64,000 bases of DNA from Deltaproteobacteria bacterium (GCA_016214995.1 JACRML010000009.1:15155-79154); one strand, 5' to 3'; positions 23,952-56,952 are shown, counted from the stretch's first letter. Numbers and translations are program-made. The notes: generated from the letters alone by a model not told the origin.

Positions 23952-25028
23952 TTATGCCATTTCAACAGCATTCCGCAGCTTGTTTTTTACCCTATACATG
24001 GCCTGGTCGGCCATTTGAATAAGTTGTGATCCTTCATGTGCATCATCTGGTATGGAAGCGACGCCAAAACTGGCAGTCAAATGGAGATTTAATCCGTCAT
24101 CCTGTAAAAAGATGTGTTTAGCAATTCTTATCCTTAATTTTTCTGCAATCTGATATGCTTGCTGTTTAGATGTTTGCGGCATTACTATCACAAACTCATC
24201 GCCGCCGTATCTGCACGCAATATTAACCTTCCGCAGGCCATTGGAAATTAGTTTTGATATTTCGGTCAGGAGTTTGCTGCCCATCAGGTGTCCATGGGCA
24301 TCGTTTACCTCCTTAAATTTATCAAGGTCAATAAAAATCATGGCAAGATTGCTATTATACCGCTTTGCCCTTTCCACCTCATAATCCAGGAATCGGTATA
24401 GGTGTCTTGCATTATACAGCTTTGTCAGGTCATCTGTTATTGTTAATTCCTGAATCTTTTGGAAAAATTTAGCATTTTCTATTGCAATTGCGGTATAGTC
24501 AGCAAGGGTGGTAAGAACAAGGAGGTCTTCCTCTTTGAAACCGCCCGGCTCAGACATCTTATTTATAAGCTCTATTACGCCAAGACATTTTTCTCTGCTT
24601 TTTAAAGGCACAGCTATTATTGATTTTGTAGTAAATTTACTGGATTCATCTACCTTCTTACAGAATCTGGGGTCTTTATTAACATCCGGCACAAGGAGGG
24701 GCGTCCTTTCTTTGGCCACCCAGCCGGCTATTCCTTCTCCCACCTTTACTCTTAGATTTTTTATCTTGTCCGCGCCTTCTCCCACAGCTATCTCAAAAGA
24801 AAGTTCATTTTTTTCATCATCCACAAGGAGGAGAGACCAATTTTTAGGCTGAAGCAGTTCGCTTACCTTTTCCATTACAATATTCAAAATTTCCTTTAAA
24901 TCCAGGGTTGAGGTAATTGCCTTGCCTAATTCACTAAATGTGGTGAGCTGTTTAAGTCTCTGGCTGTGCTCTGAAGCAAAGGTAGATTCGGGCATTGTTT
25001 CTACGATCTCTTTTTCAATATGGGCCAT
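23952..25028 (-). CDS. GAF domain-containing diguanylate cyclase (GGDEF)
   Basis: RYGGDEFVIVMP GGDEF motif; N-terminal GAF-like region. Confidence 0.8.
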   Translation of the reverse strand: MAHIEKEIVETMPESTFASEHSQRLKQLTTFSELGKAITSTLDLKEILNIVMEKVSELLQPKNWSLLLVDDEKNELSFEIAVGEGADKIKNLRVKVGEGIAGWVAKERTPLLVPDVNKDPRFCKKVDESSKFTTKSIIAVPLKSREKCLGVIELINKMSEPGGFKEEDLLVLTTLADYTAIAIENAKFFQKIQELTITDDLTKLYNARHLYRFLDYEVERAKRYNSNLAMIFIDLDKFKEVNDAHGHLMGSKLLTEISKLISNGLRKVNIACRYGGDEFVIVMPQTSKQQAYQIAEKLRIRIAKHIFLQDDGLNLHLTASFGVASIPDDAHEGSQLIQMADQAMYRVKNKLRNAVEMA

Positions 25029-25080
25029 ATTTCTTAAAAGTTATCGTATTTAATGGGGAAAATCAAGGAATAATCTGTCT

Positions 25081-25373
25081 GTAAAATAGCGATTGAACCG
25101 GTGCTATTTTACATCTTCCACTTGCAATCGCTTCGCAGCAAGTGGAGCCAGCCGATTTGCTCGCCCCAATCTTTGCTTGGGTGCCCCGATTTAGTTATCG
25201 GCTATTTTTGCTCCTCACCGTATCCTTCCCCTGTTCCTCTCCATGAGGGGGATAAAGGGGGAGGGCTGGTCGTAAATAACACACCCCTTTAGTCCCCTCT
25301 CGAGAGGGGATTTAGGGGTGTGTTGTCTGGCAGTCAACTTGCAGGTTTTCCCAAAAATCAAGGTCTATTTTGT
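25081..25373 (+). repeat. ~300-bp structured intergenic repeat, copy C
   Basis: gtaaaatagcgattgaaccggtgctattttac hairpin, core cttccacttgcaatcgcttcgcagcaagtggag, G-rich palindromes, terminal ccaaaaatcaaggtctattttgtgg. Confidence 0.8.
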
Positions 25374-26227
25374 GGTTGTTTTAACACCATCTGTTTGTAG
25401 GCTTGCTGCAACCTCATGGTTAATGCACCAACCTTTCCACTACCGATCAATTTATCTCCTATCTTTACAAGGGGAATAATTTCCATTATGGAATTGGTAA
25501 GAAATGCCTCCTGGCTGTTTTTAAAATCTGTTTTAGTTAAAGAAATTTCACCGATTTTTATGCCTTGTTTTTTTGCCAGTTCAATCACAAGCCTTCGTGT
25601 AATTCCAGCGAGAATACCATCTTTTACTGGAGGAGTTTTAATGCCTTTTCCATCAAAAAGAAATATATTTGTGATAGCCCCCTCCAGTACTTTGCCACTG
25701 TTGGTAAATATTCCCTCTTGCATTCTGCTTTTATTAGCCTCAATCAACCCCATAATATTTGCCAGAAGGTTTAAAGATTTTACGTGGGGGAGGGGTCTTG
25801 TTTTATTGCTTAAAAAAACAGCGCCCATACCTTTGTACTGATAATGCTCAATCTTTTTTATATCCAACTGTTTTGCTATGATTACTATGCTAGGTTTCAA
25901 CGATTTGGAAGGCATTAATCTGCCATAATCCATGCCCCTTGTTATGATTACTTTTATATAGGCATCACCAATTGTTAGTTTATTTAGTTCAAGTAATTTC
26001 TGAAGAGAGTCTGACAAATATTTTTTGTTTTGTCTGAAGAGTATCTCAATTGTTCTGGCGCCCTCTATTAAACGTTCCAAATGAAGGTCTAGAGCAAATA
26101 TCGTTCCATTGTATGAACGTATTGTTTCAAAAAGCCCGTCTCCATAAGTAAACCCTCTATCAAATATGGATACCGATGCCTTATCAGATGCCAAAAATCG
26201 GCCGTTCAGGAAAACGATGTTGTTCAT
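25358..26227 (-). CDS. pabC: class IV aminotransferase fold: aminodeoxychorismate lyase (PabC)-like
   Basis: Fold-type IV PLP-enzyme signature (GDGLFETIR...; E..TN.F). Sits directly after pabB-like. Confidence 0.6.
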   Translation of the reverse strand: MNNIVFLNGRFLASDKASVSIFDRGFTYGDGLFETIRSYNGTIFALDLHLERLIEGARTIEILFRQNKKYLSDSLQKLLELNKLTIGDAYIKVIITRGMDYGRLMPSKSLKPSIVIIAKQLDIKKIEHYQYKGMGAVFLSNKTRPLPHVKSLNLLANIMGLIEANKSRMQEGIFTNSGKVLEGAITNIFLFDGKGIKTPPVKDGILAGITRRLVIELAKKQGIKIGEISLTKTDFKNSQEAFLTNSIMEIIPLVKIGDKLIGSGKVGALTMRLQQAYKQMVLKQPQNRP

Positions 26228-26310
26228 AAGAATCTGGGATGCGGGAGATGGGGTGTGGGACGTGGTAAAAGATTTTCCTGCTTCCTAGCTCCTACTTCCT
26301 ACCTCCTGTC

Positions 26311-27726
26311 TTAAATGATTGCCTTAAAAAATGCATTGGCCTTCAGCATGGTTTCTTCATACTCTTCCTCTGGATTAGAATCAGCGACAATACCGCCTCC
26401 GACATTTAGATACAATCGATTGTCTTTTAAGACAGCGGTTCTTATGGCCATTGACAAATCCATATTGCCGCAAAAATCCATATATCCAATTGCCCCTGTG
26501 TATATGCCGCGTGGTACTGGTTCCAGTTCTTCTATTATTTCCATTGCCCTTATCTTGGGGGCGCCTGTTACCGAGCCGCCAGGAAATACAGATTTTATAC
26601 AATCTACAGGTGTTATTCCGTTTTTTATCTTTCCTTTAACCGTGGACATCATGTGATGAAGTGTAGCATAAGTATCTATTTTTTGCAGAGGCCGTACCTC
26701 TATTGACCCATATTCGCAAATTTTCCCCAAATCATTTCTCTCTAAATCTACAATCATTATATGTTCTGCCAGTTCCTTGCGGCTTTGCTTAAGCTCTTTA
26801 ATAAAAATTTTATCCTCTTTTGTGTTTTTACCTCTCGGCCTTGTGCCTTTTATCGGACATGTTTCTGCAATGCCGTTATTGAGTTTAAACAATCTTTCCG
26901 GCGAGTTGGATATTACCTGAAACTCCCCGTAATTAAGGAATGCCCCAAATTGAGCAGGGTTTATTTTTCTCAACTTTGAATAGAAAAGAAGATGGTCTCC
27001 ATGGAAATCCATGGTAAGTCTTTGAGACAAATTTGCCTGATATATATCGCCAGAGGCAATATAGCTTTGCGCTTGTTTAATTGCATTCATATAATCATCT
27101 TTGGTAAAATTTGATTTAATACAAGTTATGGGGTTAGGGTGTTCCAGCTGCTGCTCCCTGTTCGCTGTTCCCATGTCCCGGCTACAGGCCCCCAGCCCCC
27201 TAAAAAACTGGTTTATCTTTTCTTTGGCCAGCAACTTTTTTATACTGCTGCCTTTTTCCGGAAGGGCGGATGCAATAACATAGCCCTTATTTATCTTGTG
27301 GTCGTATGCAAAAATGGTATCATATAGGCCTAAAATACAATCAGGAATATTTGGCTCCGCAGTGCGTTTTTCCGGAAGCCGCTCTAATTGGTTTTTTAAT
27401 TCATATCCAAAATAACCAACAGCGCCGCACTGAAAGGGAAACCCGAATTCCTCCTTGTTCCATCCTTTACTAAATGGGGGAGGGAAAGGATTAAATTCAT
27501 TGAGTAAAGAGGTTAAGGCAGAGAATATGCTGCCTGCTAAGATTCTACATGTAGAATCTTTATTAATCTCTACCTTATTATCATATGCTTTGAGTAAAAC
27601 AAATGGGTTTGCGCCTGCAAAGGAATACCTGCTTAAACCGCAGCTATCCAGGAAAAAGGAGTACGGCTGAGAATATAACTTACGAAATACATCTATTGGA
27701 TTCATATTACACAGCTCCATCAGCAT
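26311..27726 (-). CDS. pabB: aminodeoxychorismate synthase / anthranilate synthase component I (chorismate-binding)
   Basis: C-terminal chorismate-binding motifs (PGGSVTGAPK.RAMEII..LE...RGIYTGAIGY). Alternative start at 27705. Confidence 0.7.
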   Translation of the reverse strand: MLMELCNMNPIDVFRKLYSQPYSFFLDSCGLSRYSFAGANPFVLLKAYDNKVEINKDSTCRILAGSIFSALTSLLNEFNPFPPPFSKGWNKEEFGFPFQCGAVGYFGYELKNQLERLPEKRTAEPNIPDCILGLYDTIFAYDHKINKGYVIASALPEKGSSIKKLLAKEKINQFFRGLGACSRDMGTANREQQLEHPNPITCIKSNFTKDDYMNAIKQAQSYIASGDIYQANLSQRLTMDFHGDHLLFYSKLRKINPAQFGAFLNYGEFQVISNSPERLFKLNNGIAETCPIKGTRPRGKNTKEDKIFIKELKQSRKELAEHIMIVDLERNDLGKICEYGSIEVRPLQKIDTYATLHHMMSTVKGKIKNGITPVDCIKSVFPGGSVTGAPKIRAMEIIEELEPVPRGIYTGAIGYMDFCGNMDLSMAIRTAVLKDNRLYLNVGGGIVADSNPEEEYEETMLKANAFFKAII

Positions 27727-27785
27727 AAGAAACAGGTTATAATTTTTTTATAGACAGGTCAAGGATTGGATTTAGGATTTTATTT

Positions 27786-29249
27786 ATGGCTCTTGACTTT
27801 ATTTATAGGGTAGGGATTAAATTGATTAAATTTTTAAACAATCTTGGGCTAAAAACGAAACTCTTACTCATGATGCTAACCCTTTGCATTATATCTATCG
27901 GCCTGTTATTCATCTTGTATAATATAGCAGAAAAGAAGCTGATAGTATCTGTAAAAAGATATACAGAGGAGCTTTCATCTGCTATTCAAGTAAGCGTAGA
28001 GCACATGACAGCGGAGGATATAGAAGGAAATGAGGAGATGCTCAAAGAATATGTAAGCCAGTTTAAAAAAAGAGGGATAAGAGAAATTTCAATTCTTAAC
28101 AACGAAATGAAGGTAATTGCCAGTTCTAATCCCCAAAAAATAGGACAGGCAATTGATATGAAAGGGAAAAAAGCGGGAAATACGGAAATTGGCCACAATT
28201 ACCTTTCAGCAGCAGAAAGCCAGCGAAGCTACGATATTATGCTGCCGGTAATAATAGGCTATGAACAACTTGGGTTTGTTCATGTAGCCGTGAGATTTGA
28301 CGATTTTGCAGATATTTTAAGGTCTAATAACTATAAAAGACTTATAGGTACCAGCCTTGTATTTGCAATAGGTATAGCCATATCTATCTTTCTATCAATG
28401 AAATATGTTAGGCCGATAAACAATCTGGCAAAGGCAACGCAAAGGATTACAGCTGGCGATCTGCAGGAAATTCCTGAGGTTAGTGGAAGTGGTGATATCG
28501 GCAACCTGACGAAAAATTTTAATGAGATGGTTAAGGGCTTGAGAGAAAATAAAAAGCTGGAAGAAAAGCTTAATGCGGCTGAGCATCTTTCCAAAATAGG
28601 GCAGCTTGCATCCGGCATAGCCCACGAAATAAGAAATCCGTTGAACTTTATAAATTTAAGCATTGACTATTTAAAAAATGAATATCAGCCTGAGGATTCT
28701 AAAAAAGGAGAAGAGTTTCATGGTTTGGTATCAGGTATCAAGGCGGAGATCAGCAGGCTTAACAACATGATTGATAATTTTCTGGATTACGGCAAACCTC
28801 TTACATTAAGACTGGAAAGATTTTTTGTTGAAGATATAATTCAAGAAGTGCTTGCCATTGCTGATTGCAGAATCAGGGAGCAGCAATTGGAGTTAAAAAC
28901 AAACTTTTCAAAAGATATTCCAGCCGTAAACCTTGACAGACAGCAAATAAAGGCATGTTTCGTGAATATAACATTGAACGCAATCCAGGCAATGTCTTGC
29001 GGCGGCAAACTGTCAGTTACAACTGCCTTAAACAATGGGTTTATTACGGTAGAACTGGAAGATACGGGAGAGGGGATTGCGGAGGATCACTTGACAAAAA
29101 TATTTGAACCATACTTCACAACCAAAACAGCCGGGATTGGATTGGGGCTTGCTATTACCAAAAGAATTATAGAAGAACACAAAGGAAGGATTGACATAAA
29201 GAGCAAGCAGGGAAATGGCACTACTGTGTCAGTAGAATTTCCAATTTAA
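27786..29249 (+). CDS. sensor histidine kinase (TM sensor, HAMP, HisKA, HATPase_c)
   Basis: SGIAHEIRNPLNFI H-box; DTGEGI/GLGL G-boxes. Confidence 0.8.
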   Translation: MALDFIYRVGIKLIKFLNNLGLKTKLLLMMLTLCIISIGLLFILYNIAEKKLIVSVKRYTEELSSAIQVSVEHMTAEDIEGNEEMLKEYVSQFKKRGIREISILNNEMKVIASSNPQKIGQAIDMKGKKAGNTEIGHNYLSAAESQRSYDIMLPVIIGYEQLGFVHVAVRFDDFADILRSNNYKRLIGTSLVFAIGIAISIFLSMKYVRPINNLAKATQRITAGDLQEIPEVSGSGDIGNLTKNFNEMVKGLRENKKLEEKLNAAEHLSKIGQLASGIAHEIRNPLNFINLSIDYLKNEYQPEDSKKGEEFHGLVSGIKAEISRLNNMIDNFLDYGKPLTLRLERFFVEDIIQEVLAIADCRIREQQLELKTNFSKDIPAVNLDRQQIKACFVNITLNAIQAMSCGGKLSVTTALNNGFITVELEDTGEGIAEDHLTKIFEPYFTTKTAGIGLGLAITKRIIEEHKGRIDIKSKQGNGTTVSVEFPI

Positions 29250-29449
29250 TACAAACGTACAAAAAATTGTTACATTAGTGGATAGCCGCGGGCTTTGGCC
29301 TGCGCTATTTATGCACCCATAAATGGTGCGGCTACCAAACGATGTCATTTTATTTATTTTATTGCGTTTGTGTTAATAGCACTGCCTTTTACAGGCAACG
29401 ACTTAGTTGGAAATAGACCACAATGCTACATTTAAATAAAGGAGAACAG

Positions 29450-30868
29450 ATGAAGGAAGGCAATATACTGGTAGTTGATGATGAAAAGGGGCAAAGGGAC
29501 ATTTTAAAAACAATCCTTGCCAATCAGGGTTATGAGGTCTTAACCAGTACCAACGGCATAGAGGCATTAAGGCTTTTTAAAGAGGCTCCCTTTGATGTAG
29601 TCTTAACTGATTTGAAGATGCCTGGATTGAATGGAGTTGAACTTCTGCAGAATATTCTTAAAGAGAAAACCACTGCAAGCGTTGTAATAATGACTGCTCA
29701 CGGCACCATTAATTCTGCTGTAGAGGCAATGAAACTTGGGGCATTTGATTATCTGGTCAAACCCTTTGATATAGACGAACTGCTGGTTGTTGTAAAAAAG
29801 GCAGCTGAGAAAACAAATCTCTTAAAAGAAAATACTATTTTAAGAGAACAATTGGAAGAGAGATTTGCTTTAGACAGCATAGTCGGCAAAAGCGGGGTTA
29901 TGCAGGATGTATTCAGAATCTTAAAAAAGGTCTGCGCAAGCAATTCTACAGTCATCATATATGGAGAGAGTGGAACAGGCAAGGAACTTATAGCGAAGGC
30001 CGTTCATTACAACAGCCAAAGAAGGAATAACCCATTTATGGCAGTAAACTGTGCCGCTATTCCAGAAACATTATTAGAAAGCGAACTCTTTGGATATGAA
30101 AAAGGCGCATTTACAGGGGCAAATGCAAGAAAGATAGGGCTCTTTGAAACAGCTAATGGAGGCACGCTTTTTTTAGATGAGATAGGAGAACTACCTTTTA
30201 CCTTACAGGCAAAGCTCCTCAGGGTGCTTCAGGAAAGAGAGATAAGAAGGCTTGGCGGGAAAGATAATATTAAAATATATGCAAGGATAATTGCAGCTAC
30301 CAATAAGAAATTAGAGGATGAGATAAAAAGGGGGAGGTTTAGAGAAGACCTTTTCTACAGATTAAATGTCATTGCCGTTAAACTGCCTGCACTCAGAGAC
30401 AGGTCAGAAGATATTCCTGAACTTGCCGACCATTTTATAAAAAAACACACCAAAACCCTCAATAAGAAGATGACAAGAATCTCAAAAGATGCAATGGCTC
30501 TGCTTATAAATTATCACTGGCCCGGCAATGTGAGACAGCTGGAATCCGCAATAGAGAGTGCGATACTGCTTGCTGACGATGGTGCCGAGATAGATGCAAA
30601 TCTTCTTCCGCATGAGGTTGCCAATCAGGTTTATCAAACTAACAGAGTTTATCAAACTAACAGAATAGATTTTGGAATACCAGATATTCCACATGGGGGG
30701 ATATCATTTAAGGAATTGGAAAAAGAATTGATAATAAAGGCTATGGAAAAAACAGGCTGGGTTATTGCAAAGGCAGCTCAACTCCTTGGTATGAGTTACA
30801 AAACGTTTCAGTACAGGCTAAACAAATTTGGCATCAAAAGAGAATCAGAAACTATACAGAAAAACTAA
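29450..30868 (+). CDS. sigma-54-dependent response regulator (NtrC family: REC, AAA+ sigma-54 activator, Fis-type HTH)
   Basis: VVDDE...D (receiver), GESGTGKE Walker A, GAFTGA motif, C-terminal HTH. AAGGAG RBS before ATG 29450. Contains an 18-bp in-frame tandem duplication at 30629-30664. Confidence 0.85.
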   Translation: MKEGNILVVDDEKGQRDILKTILANQGYEVLTSTNGIEALRLFKEAPFDVVLTDLKMPGLNGVELLQNILKEKTTASVVIMTAHGTINSAVEAMKLGAFDYLVKPFDIDELLVVVKKAAEKTNLLKENTILREQLEERFALDSIVGKSGVMQDVFRILKKVCASNSTVIIYGESGTGKELIAKAVHYNSQRRNNPFMAVNCAAIPETLLESELFGYEKGAFTGANARKIGLFETANGGTLFLDEIGELPFTLQAKLLRVLQEREIRRLGGKDNIKIYARIIAATNKKLEDEIKRGRFREDLFYRLNVIAVKLPALRDRSEDIPELADHFIKKHTKTLNKKMTRISKDAMALLINYHWPGNVRQLESAIESAILLADDGAEIDANLLPHEVANQVYQTNRVYQTNRIDFGIPDIPHGGISFKELEKELIIKAMEKTGWVIAKAAQLLGMSYKTFQYRLNKFGIKRESETIQKN

Positions 30869-30975
30869 CCGGATACCTTAAATAAGGCAGCGGATATTCC
30901 AAATAAGGTAGTAAGAAGGAGAATATAATTCTGTTACACCAACCAACTTCTTGATTTTACTTATATAATTTATAT

Positions 30976-30991
30976 TGGCATAATTAATGCA
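30976..30991 (+). promoter_or_regulatory. candidate sigma-54 (-24/-12) promoter upstream of the small secreted NPC-repeat protein
   Basis: TGGCATAATTAATGCA: GG and GC are spaced exactly as in the TGGCAC-N5-TTGC consensus. Lies ~45 nt upstream of ATG 31036 and just downstream of the NtrC-type activator. Confidence 0.45.
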
Positions 30992-31035
30992 TAAATCTTC
31001 ATGAAAACTTACTCAATGAAAGGGGGTGAAAATTC

Positions 31036-31416
31036 ATGAAGAAAGTATTGACATTATTAGTAGCATTAACAATTGCTGTAGCAGTGAGCGGTATGGCCTT
31101 TGCAGGAGAGAAAAAGGCAGCAGAGCCAGCAGCCAAAGCAGAGGCAAAAAATCCTTGCGCAGCAAAGAATCCCTGCGGTATGAAAAATCCGTGTGCCGCT
31201 AAGGCAGTTACAAAGGGAGAGGGTGAAGTAACAGCAATTGATGCCAAGGCAAAGACAGTAACTGTTAAGACAAAAAAGGGTGAAGTTATAATATCCATCA
31301 GCGATGCTTCCAACATTACTGTTGGCAAGGAGGCCAAGGATATCAAAGATGTAAAGGTTGGCGATAAGATAAAGGTAACTGTTATAAAGCCAGCAAAGAA
31401 AGAAGAAAAGAAGTAA
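31036..31416 (+). CDS. small secreted Lys/Ala-rich protein with triple NPC(A/G)xK repeat and a beta-rich C-terminal domain
   Basis: Signal peptide MKKVLTLLVALTIAVAVSGMAFA; NPCAAKNPCGMKNPCAAK; strong RBS aaggggg. Confidence 0.6.
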   Translation: MKKVLTLLVALTIAVAVSGMAFAGEKKAAEPAAKAEAKNPCAAKNPCGMKNPCAAKAVTKGEGEVTAIDAKAKTVTVKTKKGEVIISISDASNITVGKEAKDIKDVKVGDKIKVTVIKPAKKEEKK

Positions 31417-31484
31417 TATTGATTTAGCATGGCGGTTATTCCGTCTGTTTCTATCTTTAAAAAATGGAAAGGTGGTGAAAATTC

Positions 31485-31706
31485 ATGAAGAAATTTTTGG
31501 TACTCTTGGTAGCATTAACAGTTACTGTAGTATTTAGCGGCATGACCTTTGCGGCAGAAGAGAAGAAGGCAGCAGAGCCAGCTAAAGCAGCAGAGCCAAC
31601 TAAAGCAGCAGAGCCAGCTAAGAAAAAAGAAGGAAAGAAAGTAAAGAAGGCAAAGAAAGCAAAGAAAGAAGAGAAGAAAGAAGAGAAAAAAGAAGAAAAG
31701 AAATAA
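31485..31706 (+). CDS. paralogous small secreted lysine-rich protein (KKEEKK tail)
   Basis: Near-identical RBS/start context and signal peptide to 31036; AEPAK repeats; (KKEEKK)n C-terminus. Confidence 0.5.
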   Translation: MKKFLVLLVALTVTVVFSGMTFAAEEKKAAEPAKAAEPTKAAEPAKKKEGKKVKKAKKAKKEEKKEEKKEEKK

Positions 31707-31749
31707 GGACACAAATAAACTCAAGGATTAGAAGCCTTGGGTTATGTTT

Positions 31750-31932
31750 TTAAAAGGCTGAAAGGCATTGTCGCGCAATGGCAATGCCTTTTAATATGTA
31801 GGTTTTAACATTTTCAAAAATAAATTCCAAAGATTTGCTTAACCCATTGAATTTAGCAAGGCAACGTTTTGTAAAACCCCAGAAAGTTTCAATGCCGTTT
31901 ATATAAAGTATTTTTATTAACAAAATACACAC
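31750..31932 (-). pseudogene. C-terminal remnant of a DDE transposase (IS1595/ISXO2-like 'NxIE.FW..KR' E-region)
   Basis: Peptide NGIETFWGFTKRCLAKFNG matches the conserved glutamate region of DDE transposases. Only ~60 aa, with no upstream ORF. Confidence 0.35.
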
Positions 31933-33426
31933 TCACTCCTTATCAATCTGTGCCTTCTGTAATCTGCCGCTAAAGTCCCTGTAAATTACCTTCCACTTGG
32001 TGAACATGTCAATTGCCCCGCCTCTTCCACCGGCTTCTCTGTGGCCAAGCCCGCTCTTTTTTGTGCCGCCAAAAGGCAGTTGAATCTCAGCGCCGATAGT
32101 AGATGCGTTTATATAAACAAGCCCTGTATCTAAATCCCTTTCTGCAACGGCAGAGTTGTTCACATCTTGCGTGTATATTGCAGATGAAAGGCCGTATTTC
32201 ACATCGTTTACAATTCTTATGGCATCTTCCAACCCATGTGCCTTTATTACAGATACAACAGGGCCGAATATCTCTTCCTGTGCAATTCGCATCTTTTGTT
32301 TTACATTGGCAAATATGGTTGGTTCTATGAAATAACCGTTGGCACACACCCCTTTTTTATATGTCGTGCCTCCGATAACTAGCTTTGCACCTTCTTTCTT
32401 GCCAATTTCAATATAGTTTAATATTTTCTGCATCTGCGATTTATTTATTACAGGCCCCACATCAGTTATTTTTAAAAGGCCATTACCGAGCCTTAACTTT
32501 GAAACAGCTTTTGTGAACATGTTAAGAAACTTATTGTAAACTGCCTCATGTACTACCACCCGGCTTGCCGCCGTGCACCTCTGACCTGTTGTGCCGAAGC
32601 CTCCCCAGATTGCACCTTCAACAGCTAGGTCAAGCATTGCATCATCCATAACAATAATGGCGTTTTTGCCGCCCATCTCACAAGAGATCTCTTTATCCAA
32701 GGTACTGCACATCTTTGCAAGTTTCTCTCCAATAGCAGTTGACCCTGTGAAAGAAACGCCGTCAACCTTTGGATGTGTTGCAAGATATTCACCGATTTCT
32801 TCCCCTGTTCCGTGGACAAGGTTTAAAACGCCGTCTGGAATACCTGCCTCAACAAGTATTTCTACCAATTTTGTAGCGCATACAGGCGTATAGCTTGATG
32901 GTTTAAATACAACCGTATTGCCGCTGACAAGCGCAGGAAATATCTTCCATGCAGGTATGGCTGTAGGAAAGTTCCACGGCGTAATCATGGCAAAAACGCC
33001 GATTGGAACACGGATGGATTTGCAGTCTTTATTGGGCAATTCAGATGGCACGGTTTCACCTGAAAGTCTTCGCCCCTCGCTACCCATGTAGTATGCCATA
33101 TCTATTGCCTCCTGCACATCCCCGAGGCCTTCTGCCAATACCTTGCCCATTTCACGCGTAACAAGCGTGCCTAATTCCTGCTTTCTTTTGTTAAGCATTT
33201 CTGCGGCCCTTAGGATAATTTCACCCCTCTTGGGAGCGGGGATAAGTCGCCATTTATTGTATAGATTGCTGGCCGCAGAGATGGCTGCATCTATATCACT
33301 TTGACCGGAACGAGGAATAATGCCTATTGTGTCCGATGTATCTGCGGGGTTGATGCTTTTAAGGGTCTTTCCATCAGCTGAATCTATCCATTTACCGTTA
33401 ATAAAATTTTTTATCTTTTCAGTCAT
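31933..33426 (-). CDS. NAD(P)-dependent aldehyde dehydrogenase
   Basis: ALDH motifs [14 protein letters not shown], catalytic GQRCTAASR. Confidence 0.85.
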
Positions 33427-54393: not shown

Positions 54394-56952
54394 ATGGATT
54401 CAACCGCACACGATCCATTTTTTCAAATCATTTCAAACCTTCTCAAGCCGTTATTGTTTGCATCAAAAGATAATTTTGCCCATCTGTCTGCAGTAAAGGA
54501 TATTGAACCCCTTGTGCAAAATCTTTGCCGTCAGGCCCTGGCTTTTCCCATATCAGAGAATAATGTCAAAGAACTTCAAAATGTGTTTGAAGGTTTTGAT
54601 TCATTGGCACTGGAGGGAAAGAAAGATAAGATAAGAAAAGCGCTGGAAATTATTAAAGTAATCAGCAATCAGTGGTCAGTGGTCAGTATATTTGCTGAAA
54701 GCCGAAAGCTGAATGTTGAATGCTACTCTTTAGATGAGATAAAAACCAGATTATCCAAAATTTCAACTCCTCTCAAGGCAGTTAAAGGCATCGGGCCGAA
54801 ACTGGGTGAGGTGTTCAGAAAAAAAGGATTAGAGACCGTGGAAGATATTTTATACTGGCTGCCCATCAGATACGAAGACAGGCGGCAGATAAAAAAGATT
54901 GCCCAATTGAGATTCGGGGTAAGAGAGGTTGCCTCCGGTGAGATAATGGCTATGAGGGAGGTTTTTTACGGCAGGCGCAAAGTCTTTGAGATTAGTATGG
55001 GTGACGGGAGCGGGTTTTTAAGACTGAAATGGTTTAATTACAGGCTTCCGCTTATAAAAAAGAGATATAAGATTGCCCAGAGATTGGTGGTCTATGGAGA
55101 GATTGGAAGCTTTGGCGGACAGAAAGAGATAATCCACCCTGATGTGGATATTTTCGAAAAGGATGAGGAACTGGATGCTATTAACTTTAATGCCATTGTA
55201 CCGGTCTATTCACAAATCGGGAATTTGCATCAGAAGACTTTGCGGAAGATAATGAGAAAGATAGTTGAAGAATATGTGTGTTGCGCAACCGGCGCTGTGC
55301 CTTCGTATATGCTGAAACGTTACGGGCTCATGGAATTGCCAAATGCTTTGGCTGAGGCCCATAAACCCAACTCCAAATTCCCAACTCCTAACCCAGAACT
55401 GTCCAAAGGCTGGCTGCCGAAAAAGAGCCTTGTATTTGATGAATTGTTTTGTCTTGAGATTGGGCTTGCGTTAAAAAAAGGCAATACGGAGAGAGAAAGC
55501 GGTATTGCGTTCACTGTGGGGACAGATTTGAAATCTCTCCCCATGGTTGAAAATTTTAAAAATATGCTGCCATTTGAATTAACCACGGCGCAGGAGAGGG
55601 TTGTCTCTGAGATAAAAAGGGATATGGCGGCACCTCATCCCATGAATCGCCTGATACAGGGCGATGTTGGCTCAGGCAAGACAGTTGTTGCATTCATTGC
55701 CAGCCTCATTGCCATTGAAAATAATTATCAATCTGCAATCATGGCTCCGACAGAGATACTTGCTGAGCAGCATTATCTTAATATCCATAGATACGCAGAT
55801 GGCATTGGCATAAGGATTGCATTTTTAAGCGGCAGCCTTACAAAATCTGAGAAGACAGGAATTCTGGATGGTATAAAAACAGGGAGGATAGACCTTGCCA
55901 TAGGCACTCATGCGCTTATTCAGGAGGATGTGGAATTTAAAAAGCTTGGCCTTGTAATTGTGGATGAGCAGCACAGATTTGGCGTTATGCAGAGGGCAAT
56001 GCTGAAAAAAAAGGGGCAAGGGGTAAGCCTGTCCCCGCAGGCATTAAGCAGGGAGGGCAAGGGGCAAGAAAGAAGTGGACTTGACTCCGGCTGCTTGACC
56101 CTGACCCCTGATGTATTAGTTATGACCGCCACACCGATACCGAGGACATTGGCCATGACCGTTTTTGGCGACCTTGATGTTTCGGTTATTGATGAATTGC
56201 CGCCAGGGAGAAGGCCGATTAAAACAAAGGCTCTCAGAGGAAATGGAAGAGATCAGGTTTATAAGATTATAAGAGGAGAACTTGCAAAAGGGAGGCAGAG
56301 CTATATTGTCTATCCGCTTATAGAGGAGTCGGAGGAGCTTGATTTAAGAGATGCTACGAAGATGGCAGAGCATTTGCAGAAGGATATATTCCATGAGTAT
56401 AAGATTGGTCTTTTGCATGGACGGATAAAGGCAGAGGAAAAGGAAAATATTATGAAGGCCTTTAAGTCAAAAGAAATAAATATACTCGTATCTACAACGG
56501 TTATAGAAGTTGGAATAGATGTGCCGAATGCAACAGTTATGGTAATTGAACATGCGGAACGGTTCGGCCTTTCACAGCTTCATCAACTCCGGGGCAGAGT
56601 GGGAAGGGGAGATCACAACTCGTATTGTATTCTCCTTGCTGATAAAATTGGCTCCGACGATTCCTACAAAAGATTAAAGGTTATGGAAGAGACTAATGAC
56701 GGTTTCAGAATAGCAGAAGAGGATTTGAATATCCGAGGGCCAGGAGATTTTCTCGGCACAAGGCAGTCCGGGCTCCCTGATTTCAGGGTTGCCAACCTTT
56801 TAATAGATGCTTCAATACTTCAGAAGGCTAGGGATGAGGCATTCAATATAATAAAAATAGACCCAGCCCTTGTAATGCCGGAGCATGCGGCTTTAAAGGA
56901 GATTGTAAAGATGCGCTGGAAGGGAAGGATGGAACTGGCACAAATTGGGTAG
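54394..56952 (+). CDS. recG: ATP-dependent DNA helicase RecG (with N-terminal extension and an in-frame G-rich repeat insertion)
   Basis: Wedge region LKAVKGIGPKLGEVF..LPIRYED; helicase motifs GDVGSGKT, VDEQHRFGV, TATPIPRTL; insertion at ~56010-56110 (ggcaagg repeats). Confidence 0.9.
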   Translation: MDSTAHDPFFQIISNLLKPLLFASKDNFAHLSAVKDIEPLVQNLCRQALAFPISENNVKELQNVFEGFDSLALEGKKDKIRKALEIIKVISNQWSVVSIFAESRKLNVECYSLDEIKTRLSKISTPLKAVKGIGPKLGEVFRKKGLETVEDILYWLPIRYEDRRQIKKIAQLRFGVREVASGEIMAMREVFYGRRKVFEISMGDGSGFLRLKWFNYRLPLIKKRYKIAQRLVVYGEIGSFGGQKEIIHPDVDIFEKDEELDAINFNAIVPVYSQIGNLHQKTLRKIMRKIVEEYVCCATGAVPSYMLKRYGLMELPNALAEAHKPNSKFPTPNPELSKGWLPKKSLVFDELFCLEIGLALKKGNTERESGIAFTVGTDLKSLPMVENFKNMLPFELTTAQERVVSEIKRDMAAPHPMNRLIQGDVGSGKTVVAFIASLIAIENNYQSAIMAPTEILAEQHYLNIHRYADGIGIRIAFLSGSLTKSEKTGILDGIKTGRIDLAIGTHALIQEDVEFKKLGLVIVDEQHRFGVMQRAMLKKKGQGVSLSPQALSREGKGQERSGLDSGCLTLTPDVLVMTATPIPRTLAMTVFGDLDVSVIDELPPGRRPIKTKALRGNGRDQVYKIIRGELAKGRQSYIVYPLIEESEELDLRDATKMAEHLQKDIFHEYKIGLLHGRIKAEEKENIMKAFKSKEINILVSTTVIEVGIDVPNATVMVIEHAERFGLSQLHQLRGRVGRGDHNSYCILLADKIGSDDSYKRLKVMEETNDGFRIAEEDLNIRGPGDFLGTRQSGLPDFRVANLLIDASILQKARDEAFNIIKIDPALVMPEHAALKEIVKMRWKGRMELAQIG

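Follow-up and report, generated by a model that had tools for sequence, protein, structure and literature searches.

We analyzed a stretch of 64,000 nucleotides (the window) from a Deltaproteobacteria bacterium (GCA_016214995.1 JACRML010000009.1:15155-79154). Positions 27786-31706 on its forward strand hold a sensor histidine kinase gene, the gene of an NtrC-type sigma-54 activator, a predicted sigma-54 promoter and two small open reading frames (ORFs), ORF-A and ORF-B, both encoding exported lysine-rich proteins. A first-pass annotation of the same DNA had proposed that the regulator pair drives both small paralogs from this promoter; on the combined evidence of conserved synteny, the -24/-12 element and upstream dyads, such control appears well supported. 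For comparison about 60 related loci were collected, of which 45 are species-level genome loci, and promoters were counted over distinct genes: 33 linked (kinase/activator nearby) and 17 unlinked paralogs.

The kinase (27786-29249, 487 aa) has a periplasmic sensor of about 137 aa between its two transmembrane segments, followed by HAMP, HisKA and HATPase_c domains (Pfam E-values of 6e-11, 1.5e-12 and 7e-23), and its H-box SGIAHEIRNPLN is intact. The activator (29423-30868, forward strand) combines a receiver (Response_reg, 5.5e-32), an AAA+ domain with an intact GAFTGA motif (Sigma54_activat, 3e-73) and a Fis-type helix-turn-helix (HTH_8, 3.6e-15); its true start is probably the ATG at 29450 (MKEGNILVVDD). 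The first-pass annotation had placed a kinase followed by a sigma-54 activator here, and the domains bear this out. With these domains, a target promoter of the -24 GG/-12 GC form and predicted activator sites upstream of it, the pair belongs by sequence to the sigma-54-dependent NtrB/NtrC-type two-component systems. Orthologs of the kinase are full-length in about 30 related loci (38-65% identity), those of the activator share 51-76% identity, and the comparison strongly supports a predicted periplasmic sensor domain of the PDC/sCache-like kind.

The arrangement of kinase, activator and small gene occurs in Thermodesulfovibrionia/Nitrospirota, 'Deltaproteobacteria' and metagenome-assembled genomes (MAGs) of Nitrospinota; one of the loci (L048) is from the cultivable Thermodesulfovibrio yellowstonii. 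In about 30 of the 45 species-level loci, full-length kinase and activator orthologs lie immediately upstream of the ORF-A homolog on the same strand. The small gene is found directly upstream of the regulators in four loci (L014, L026, L037, L038) and about 3 kb upstream in L020. Because the neighbouring genes outside this set vary by locus (for instance between L001 and L005), kinase, activator and small gene travel as a unit.

The promoter, TGGCATAATTAATGCA at 30976-30991 (forward strand), precedes the start codon of ORF-A by about 45 nt and reads TGGCAT-N5-ATGCA, with the -24 element TGGCAT, the -12 element ATGCA and the correct GG-N10-GC spacing. It sits one base off the position implied by the first-pass annotation, which had named a -24/-12-like element before the 126-aa protein. 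Judged against chance alone, the loose pattern makes a weak case for a promoter in the window (2 matches against 1.02 expected), and we accept the promoter as real because of its conservation across genomes, not because of in-window statistics: the element precedes 27 of the 33 linked genes against 2 of the 17 unlinked paralogs, at a background of 0.018 per region. In most loci it takes the form TGGCA(C/T/A)-N5-NTG(C/T/A)N at 36-93 nt upstream of the start (143 nt in L010). The second sigma-54-like match, TGGCATAAGGATTGCA at 55806-55821 (forward strand), falls inside a recG-like helicase ORF (54394-56952); as a second promoter it was rejected, a chance match being most likely.

Alignment of the upstream regions of related loci on the -24 element revealed a pair of dyads, which by motif match are predicted activator sites: TACCTTAAATAAGGCA at 30874-30889 and TATTCCAAATAAGGTA at 30895-30910 (both forward strand), the latter about 65 bp upstream of the -24 element. 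The two are spaced by 21 bp (two helical turns), are reported by a repeat finder as a 21-nt direct repeat at 21-nt spacing, and lie as a pair some 65-100 bp upstream of the promoter; no other match to the motif is present in the 64 kb. Tandem dyads stand at the equivalent position in related loci, their sequence co-varying with lineage (TACCCCAAATGAGGCA / TGCCTCAAATAGGTTA in L001, TATACCAAATGGTATA in L005, TCCCCAAAAAAGGA / TTCCCTAAAAGAGGAA in Nitrospirota, TACCTTAAATAAGGCA in the window). Dyads and promoter are kept where the small gene precedes the regulators (L014, L026, L038, L020), with the exception of L037, and dyads are also present at L031 and L060, which have no regulator gene nearby. 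In four Nitrospirota loci the dyads and the sigma-54 promoter are 200-400 bp apart (L009 4660-4995, L040 4680-4995, L039 2300-2625 and L048 4480-5000), which fits activation from a distance. Dyads distant from the -24/-12 element are the standard anatomy of an enhancer-dependent promoter served by NtrC-type activators.

Some peculiarities of individual loci concern the same regions. The 200-400 bp of L009, L040 and L039 contain palindromic repeats, such as TTGTCCGG..CCGGACAA and ATTCCCCGA..TCGGGGAAT. In a close relative of the window's locus (L053 1980-2110) the activator ORF ends early and a sigma-54 promoter follows about 12 nt past the stop, without dyads. The cause is a deletion or else a variant of the assembly, and L054 encodes an identical small protein but a full-length activator. 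In the window kinase and activator are further apart (about 175-200 nt) than in orthologous loci (19-30 nt). For the spacer (29244-29380, forward strand) a long, nested hairpin is predicted (-45.6 kcal/mol, z = -4.8), which occurs only once in the window and matches nothing in Rfam; an Rfam scan of 27000-32500 found no RNA family. An inserted palindromic element or an RNA structure within the operon may account for it.

ORF-A (31036-31416, forward strand; 126 aa, containing KNPCAAKNPCGMKNPC) is identical to a hypothetical protein in the database from a 'Deltaproteobacteria bacterium' MAG. By inspection, residues 1-23 form a Sec signal peptide that lacks a lipobox and would be cleaved at AFA|GE; they are followed by a disordered A/E/P/K arm with three copies of KNPC (residues 24-56; KNPC at 31147-31194), by a truncated small beta-barrel, probably of the DUF5666 family (residues 57-118; 31204-31389), and by a KKEEKK tail. 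This matches the signal-peptide protein with triple KNPC and beta-rich domain that had been described from the sequence: AF2 predicts the barrel at a predicted local distance difference test (pLDDT) score of about 90 and the arm at about 42, and a domain-only model reaches 87.8.

ORF-B (31485-31706, forward strand; 73 aa) likewise agrees with its earlier description as a paralog with AEPAK repeats and a KKEEKK tail: it has a signal peptide, the repeats and a polybasic tail (KKVKKAKKAKK/KKEEKK), with no folded domain. As had also been noted, the two small genes share an identical ribosome-binding site (RBS) and start context, namely the 20-nt stretch GGTGAAAATTCATGAAGAAA, and their 5' ends are about 80% identical at the DNA level. 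ORF-B has a strong RBS of its own (31470-31479) but no promoter of its own, and hence should be read from the ORF-A promoter; co-transcription of both genes is the likeliest layout. A weak 5-bp hairpin between them (31431-31445) could attenuate read-through, and a hairpin plus T-run resembling an intrinsic terminator (31718-31743, forward strand) ends the predicted transcript. Single-gene orthologous loci end in similar hairpins.

Since close relatives (L001, L053) carry one gene followed by a terminator, ORF-B was first taken for a local duplication. That it is a decaying duplicate is ruled out, as barrel-less homologs recur elsewhere under the same control. A homolog search retrieved barrel-less proteins of 73-77 aa with a signal peptide, AEPAK-like repeats and a KKxKKAKKAKK core, encoded behind sigma-54-type promoters in L056 (TGGCACGCTGCCTGCT), L057 (TGGCATGGTCTCTGCT) and L060 (TGGCATAATTGATGCT, here with dyads TACCTCAAATGAGGTA / TATCTCAGTTGAGGTA). 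In three Nitrospirota loci (L044, L045, L049) a barrel-less gene with dyads and promoter directly follows the activator and precedes the DUF5666 gene, so that the first sigma-54 target there is predicted to be barrel-less; in L025 (Nitrospinota) it comes after the DUF5666 gene, as in the window. ORF-B-type genes are thus found in the regulon of four other loci and in either gene order, and by this comparison ORF-B is a real partner in the regulon.

The same observations bear on the possibility that the small ORFs and the GG/GC element are products of chance in AT-rich intergenic DNA rich in lysine codons. The sequence is indeed of low complexity, and matches to the loose promoter pattern in the window do not by themselves reach significance. 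Nonetheless, more than 45 species-level genomes encode homologs of ORF-A, the model of its barrel is of high confidence, promoter and dyads show conservation as well as co-variation from lineage to lineage, and ORF-B-type genes recur with promoters of their own. Conservation of the small ORFs, which had been put forward as a check, therefore refutes the chance explanation, to which we give practically no weight.

Within the locus, the comparison strongly supports ORF-A and ORF-B as the only targets of the predicted sigma-54 promoter, both small, Sec-exported and strongly polycationic. Over the family, composition is dominated by lysine (21.7%) and alanine (17.1%), with 8.5% glutamate, 2.7% methionine and only 0.4% each of cysteine and histidine. 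Given that barrel-less genes recur in the regulon, the barrel seems optional: the conserved payload is, with strong support from the related loci, predicted to be an exported, disordered Lys/Ala/Glu/Pro-rich polypeptide with or without one DUF5666 barrel. In Pfam and NCBIfam neither ORF-A nor ORF-B has a match to the ZraP/CpxP/Spy (LTxxQ) families apart from a Spy match (E 0.014) that covers the signal peptide only, in line with the earlier statement that the effector lacks such sequence. Judged by these profile searches, the effectors belong to no characterised family.

Assignment of the ORF-A barrel to DUF5666 (PF18914) is by transitivity. ORF-A itself has no DUF5666 match and 8 of 17 family members match weakly, but the Nitrospirota ortholog P0161 reaches 27.5 bits (cut-off 27), and a barrel profile search returned 3106 cluster representatives, the best of which are proteins of 250-1100 aa with 3-12 tandem copies scoring 52-162 bits on DUF5666. 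Such typical members lack polybasic arms, and ORF-A differs from them in having just one copy, which is shortened C-terminally and scores below threshold; in the family alignment the last barrel strand is missing in the window's clade and present in other members. Searches with Foldseek of the full-length and domain-only models against PDB gave no significant match, only generic OB folds at a TM-score of about 0.56.

Tandem copies of this kind are typical of surface and repeat proteins, and could suggest that the exported proteins are matrix, surface-layer or adhesion components under sigma-54 control, with a structural role at the cell exterior instead of one as stress chaperones. The top Foldseek matches include an S-layer self-assembly domain, though not significantly; links between sigma-54 regulons and the cell exterior are frequent (PMC4641369), and Dissulfuribacter thermophilus has a DUF5666 protein as one of its 20 most abundant proteins during thiosulfate disproportionation (PMC13490349). 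The members of the regulon discussed here, however, are single-domain or domain-less proteins of 70-190 aa without an anchoring signal (lipobox, sortase motif or PEP-CTERM), and a sensor kinase dedicated to a single tiny gene is seen more typically in inducible stress responses. We therefore hold a structural role to be quite improbable.

The triple KNPC motif had been taken to suggest a soft-metal ligand site; as the core function of the protein, this finds no support in the comparison. The coding pattern KNPC-x2-KNPC is certainly not expected by chance (2 matches in the window against 0.01), but within the family KNPC is confined to the window's own small clade, where it shifts position: P0001-P0003 carry it N-terminal of the barrel and P0005, P0006, P0008, P0010 and P0014 in the C-terminal tail, whereas P0012 and the close relatives P0004, P0007 and P0009 lack it. 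Because Cys and His are entirely missing from many co-regulated orthologs that share the promoter, KNPC is not a conserved functional site. We infer that its cysteines form a lineage-specific extra module that would add reactive thiols without being part of the core function; metal binding by the KNPC-bearing members is possible.

A metal-responsive system of the ZraPSR/CusF kind would have the kinase sense a soft metal (Cu, Zn, Cd) and the exported proteins act as metallochaperones or buffers, through KNPC thiolates here and through Met or His in other lineages. The barrel does show a weak similarity to the Cu(I)/Ag(I) chaperones CusF/SilF, which are also small periplasmic OB-like barrels and share the pattern GxVxxVD...TI(T/V)...VKxGDKV. 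Pfam CusF (PF11604) gives ORF-A 21.8 bits (cut-off 27), CusF_Ec matches 14 of 17 family members, all sub-threshold (best member E 5.9e-6), and CusF is the best PDB profile match (E 0.021) with a pairwise hhalign E of 3e-4. Further in favor, a Nitrospinota MAG (L029 3140-7272) holds two Cys-bearing paralogs between multicopper oxidase and thioredoxin-like genes, some orthologs are Met-rich (9 Met in L009, 12 in L028), and Cys occurs inside the barrel in P0013, P0018 and L025.

Against this, the hhalign probability is just 39.7%, and Foldseek places CusF (TM-score 0.56, E 1.6) no better than generic OB folds. The His/Met/Met(/Trp) Cu(I) site of CusF is not conserved in the barrel (ligand region HHDPIAAVNWPEMTM aligned to KTKKGEVVISITDDS), which in the window's clade also lacks the last strand, and neither Cys, His nor Met is enriched family-wide. 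With the same promoter and dyads, the small proteins of L048 and L049 contain no Cys, His or Met and those of, for example, L015 and L043 no Cys or His; KNPC is missing in close relatives, as described above, and the sensor domain has no Cys in any of the kinase orthologs compared. On the regulatory side the kinase scores 188.5 bits against a cut-off of 479 for the NCBIfam ZraS equivalog and likewise misses the heavy-metal-kinase cut-off, while ZraR is missed by the activator. Taken together, a metal-responsive system is unlikely.

The cysteine repeat itself extends well beyond this family. A metagenome scan at the DNA level found at least 142 distinct ORFs with two or more NPC motifs. The carriers among these matches include tiny proteins made of a signal peptide and (NPCAAK)n, SoxA/TsdA-like monohaem cytochromes bearing an array at each terminus (among the matches listed, CxxCH is present in 58 of the 142), a thioredoxin-like protein, an array-flanked DUF5666-like barrel and TPR proteins; example loci within L061-L180, all on the reverse strand, are L075 220-462, L070 559-852, L087 1801-2472, L128 7131-7718 and L158 433-1161. 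No Pfam or NCBIfam model covers the NPCAAK/KNPC repeat and no paper on it was found; a PF25052 'defensin-like' match on the array cytochromes was discarded as an artefact of cysteine composition. By these matches, NPCAAK arrays are a separate and widespread periplasmic module, carried mostly, among the matches listed, by SoxA/TsdA-like cytochromes. The array cytochrome genes often follow a DUF3379 gene and have pentahaem cytochrome genes, with products of about 430 aa, as neighbours (L073 2441-3655, L115 1749-2975, L119 8683-9432, L163 9017-10003, L102 7727-9022, L113 2454-3776 and L140 2781-4082), which suggests a separate conserved periplasmic redox module.

This distribution could mean that in the window's clade the KNPC thiols do not bind metals and instead carry persulfide or polysulfide, or take part in periplasmic thiol-redox reactions. 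The arrays on monohaem cytochromes and on a thioredoxin-like protein, their vicinity to pentahaem cytochrome genes and the sulfur-cycling anaerobic lifestyle of the hosts all point in this direction, albeit by association alone. As the KNPC-bearing members are a minority of the family, it would in any case not be the conserved function of the regulon, and for the window's clade we rate this option as very unlikely.

The explanation we consider fairly probable is a self-contained module in which kinase, activator, dyads and sigma-54 promoter lead to the production of polycations protecting the envelope. Upon a periplasmic signal the kinase would phosphorylate the activator, which would bind the dyads and open the sigma-54 promoter by ATP hydrolysis; the cell would then fill its envelope with small exported lysine-rich polycations. 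These may protect or buffer, like the disordered chaperone Asr or like CpxP, ZraP and Spy, and may feed back on the kinase.

The type of circuit is standard. In ZraS-ZraR-ZraP, too, a periplasm-sensing kinase and an NtrC-type sigma-54 activator have one small exported protein as their main target, so that the parallel drawn in the first-pass annotation holds for the logic of the system. It does not extend to family membership. The activator remains below every NCBIfam equivalog cut-off (AtoC 501 of 714 bits, NtrC 459 of 559, ZraR 403.4 of 760), and together with the kinase scores this means that, as far as the profiles discriminate, the pair are not orthologs of AtoSC, NtrBC or ZraSR. The effector moreover has neither the ZraP/CpxP fold nor LTxxQ, no conserved metal ligands were found in its family, and its genes are co-directional with the regulators, unlike zraP, which in E. 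coli is divergent from zraSR. CpxAR-CpxP and BaeSR-Spy are likewise envelope-stress two-component systems inducing a small basic periplasmic protein, but with sigma-70 promoters, OmpR-type regulators and alpha-helical effectors; CpxP modulates its kinase. Asr resembles the small proteins in having a signal peptide followed by a Lys/Ala/Pro-rich disordered polycation induced by two-component systems (PhoBR/RstBA), and it is the best NCBIfam match of ORF-B, which we count in favor of the analogy; it is sigma-70-dependent and processed further. As a disordered periplasmic chaperone under two-component control, Asr can become extremely abundant (PMC10746267).

The genomic surroundings of unlinked paralogs were also considered. 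Three lie beside genes for SurA_N-type chaperones (L031 3374-4628, L034 4081-5258, L004 4815-6279), which we count in favor of a protective role; the one in L004 has a sigma-70-like promoter instead of the sigma-54 element. Another follows a P2-type cation ATPase gene (L019 2252-5327), and in L036 (1744-5219) the ORF upstream of the paralog has the same length as that ATPase. The two Cys-bearing copies of L029, described above, are unlinked paralogs as well.

Several points weigh against a protective-polycation module. The putative protective role is deduced from composition and analogy, and the match of ORF-B to Asr (NF033636) fails the equivalog test (28.7 bits, cut-off 50); Asr being rich in His and Gln and the match being sub-threshold and compositional, it is no evidence of homology between the two. 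The DUF5666 family is without known function, and its mostly long, multi-copy members could point to a structural or surface role. For the stimulus there is no pointer: the sensor domain scores 23.8 bits on sCache_3_2, under the cut-off of 28.4, the sequence search found no relative of it in PDB, a homolog search returned three proteins (too few for structure prediction), and neither conserved residues nor net charge gave a ligand clue among the orthologs compared. That charge is only mildly acidic (mean -2.5, range -9 to +3), so electrostatic feedback of the polycations on the kinase is not indicated. Finally, 6 linked genes lack a strict -24/-12 element, although L001 among them is a start-codon artefact and in L044, L045 and L049 the element sits on the preceding barrel-less gene.

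Upstream of the module, three genes that are syntenic with L001 occupy the reverse strand of the window (23952-27726); they encode a GAF-GGDEF diguanylate cyclase, a class IV aminotransferase and a chorismate-binding (PabB/TrpE-like) enzyme. Downstream of ORF-B lies a convergent aldehyde dehydrogenase gene (31933-33426), which is not conserved in L001.

In the literature on DUF5666, on KNPC/NPCAAK repeats and on sigma-54 with lysine-rich periplasmic proteins we found nothing on this system, and the regulon itself is without a description there. The analysis provides an orphan kinase/activator pair, common in poorly studied anaerobes of groundwater and sediment, with a precise and testable regulon made up of dyads, promoter and one or two target genes. 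Single-domain DUF5666 proteins and barrel-less polycationic exported peptides are thereby placed in a regulatory setting for the first time. The cysteine repeat stands as a separate, uncharacterised periplasmic module and may be the more interesting lead. More tentatively, and with the balance tilted against it, many anaerobic Nitrospirota, Desulfobacterota-like bacteria and Nitrospinota might share an unrecognised sigma-54 envelope response whose entire output is to fill the periplasm with small lysine-rich disordered proteins, with or without a DUF5666 barrel. If true, such proteins would form a novel class of stress effectors in the periplasm, served by a sensor of their own. Independently of this, NPCAAK arrays might represent a modular thiol 'arm' of a new kind, attached to redox proteins of the periplasm such as SoxA/TsdA-like cytochromes. 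If the polycations are protective, they would add a new type of effector to the biology of bacterial envelope stress.

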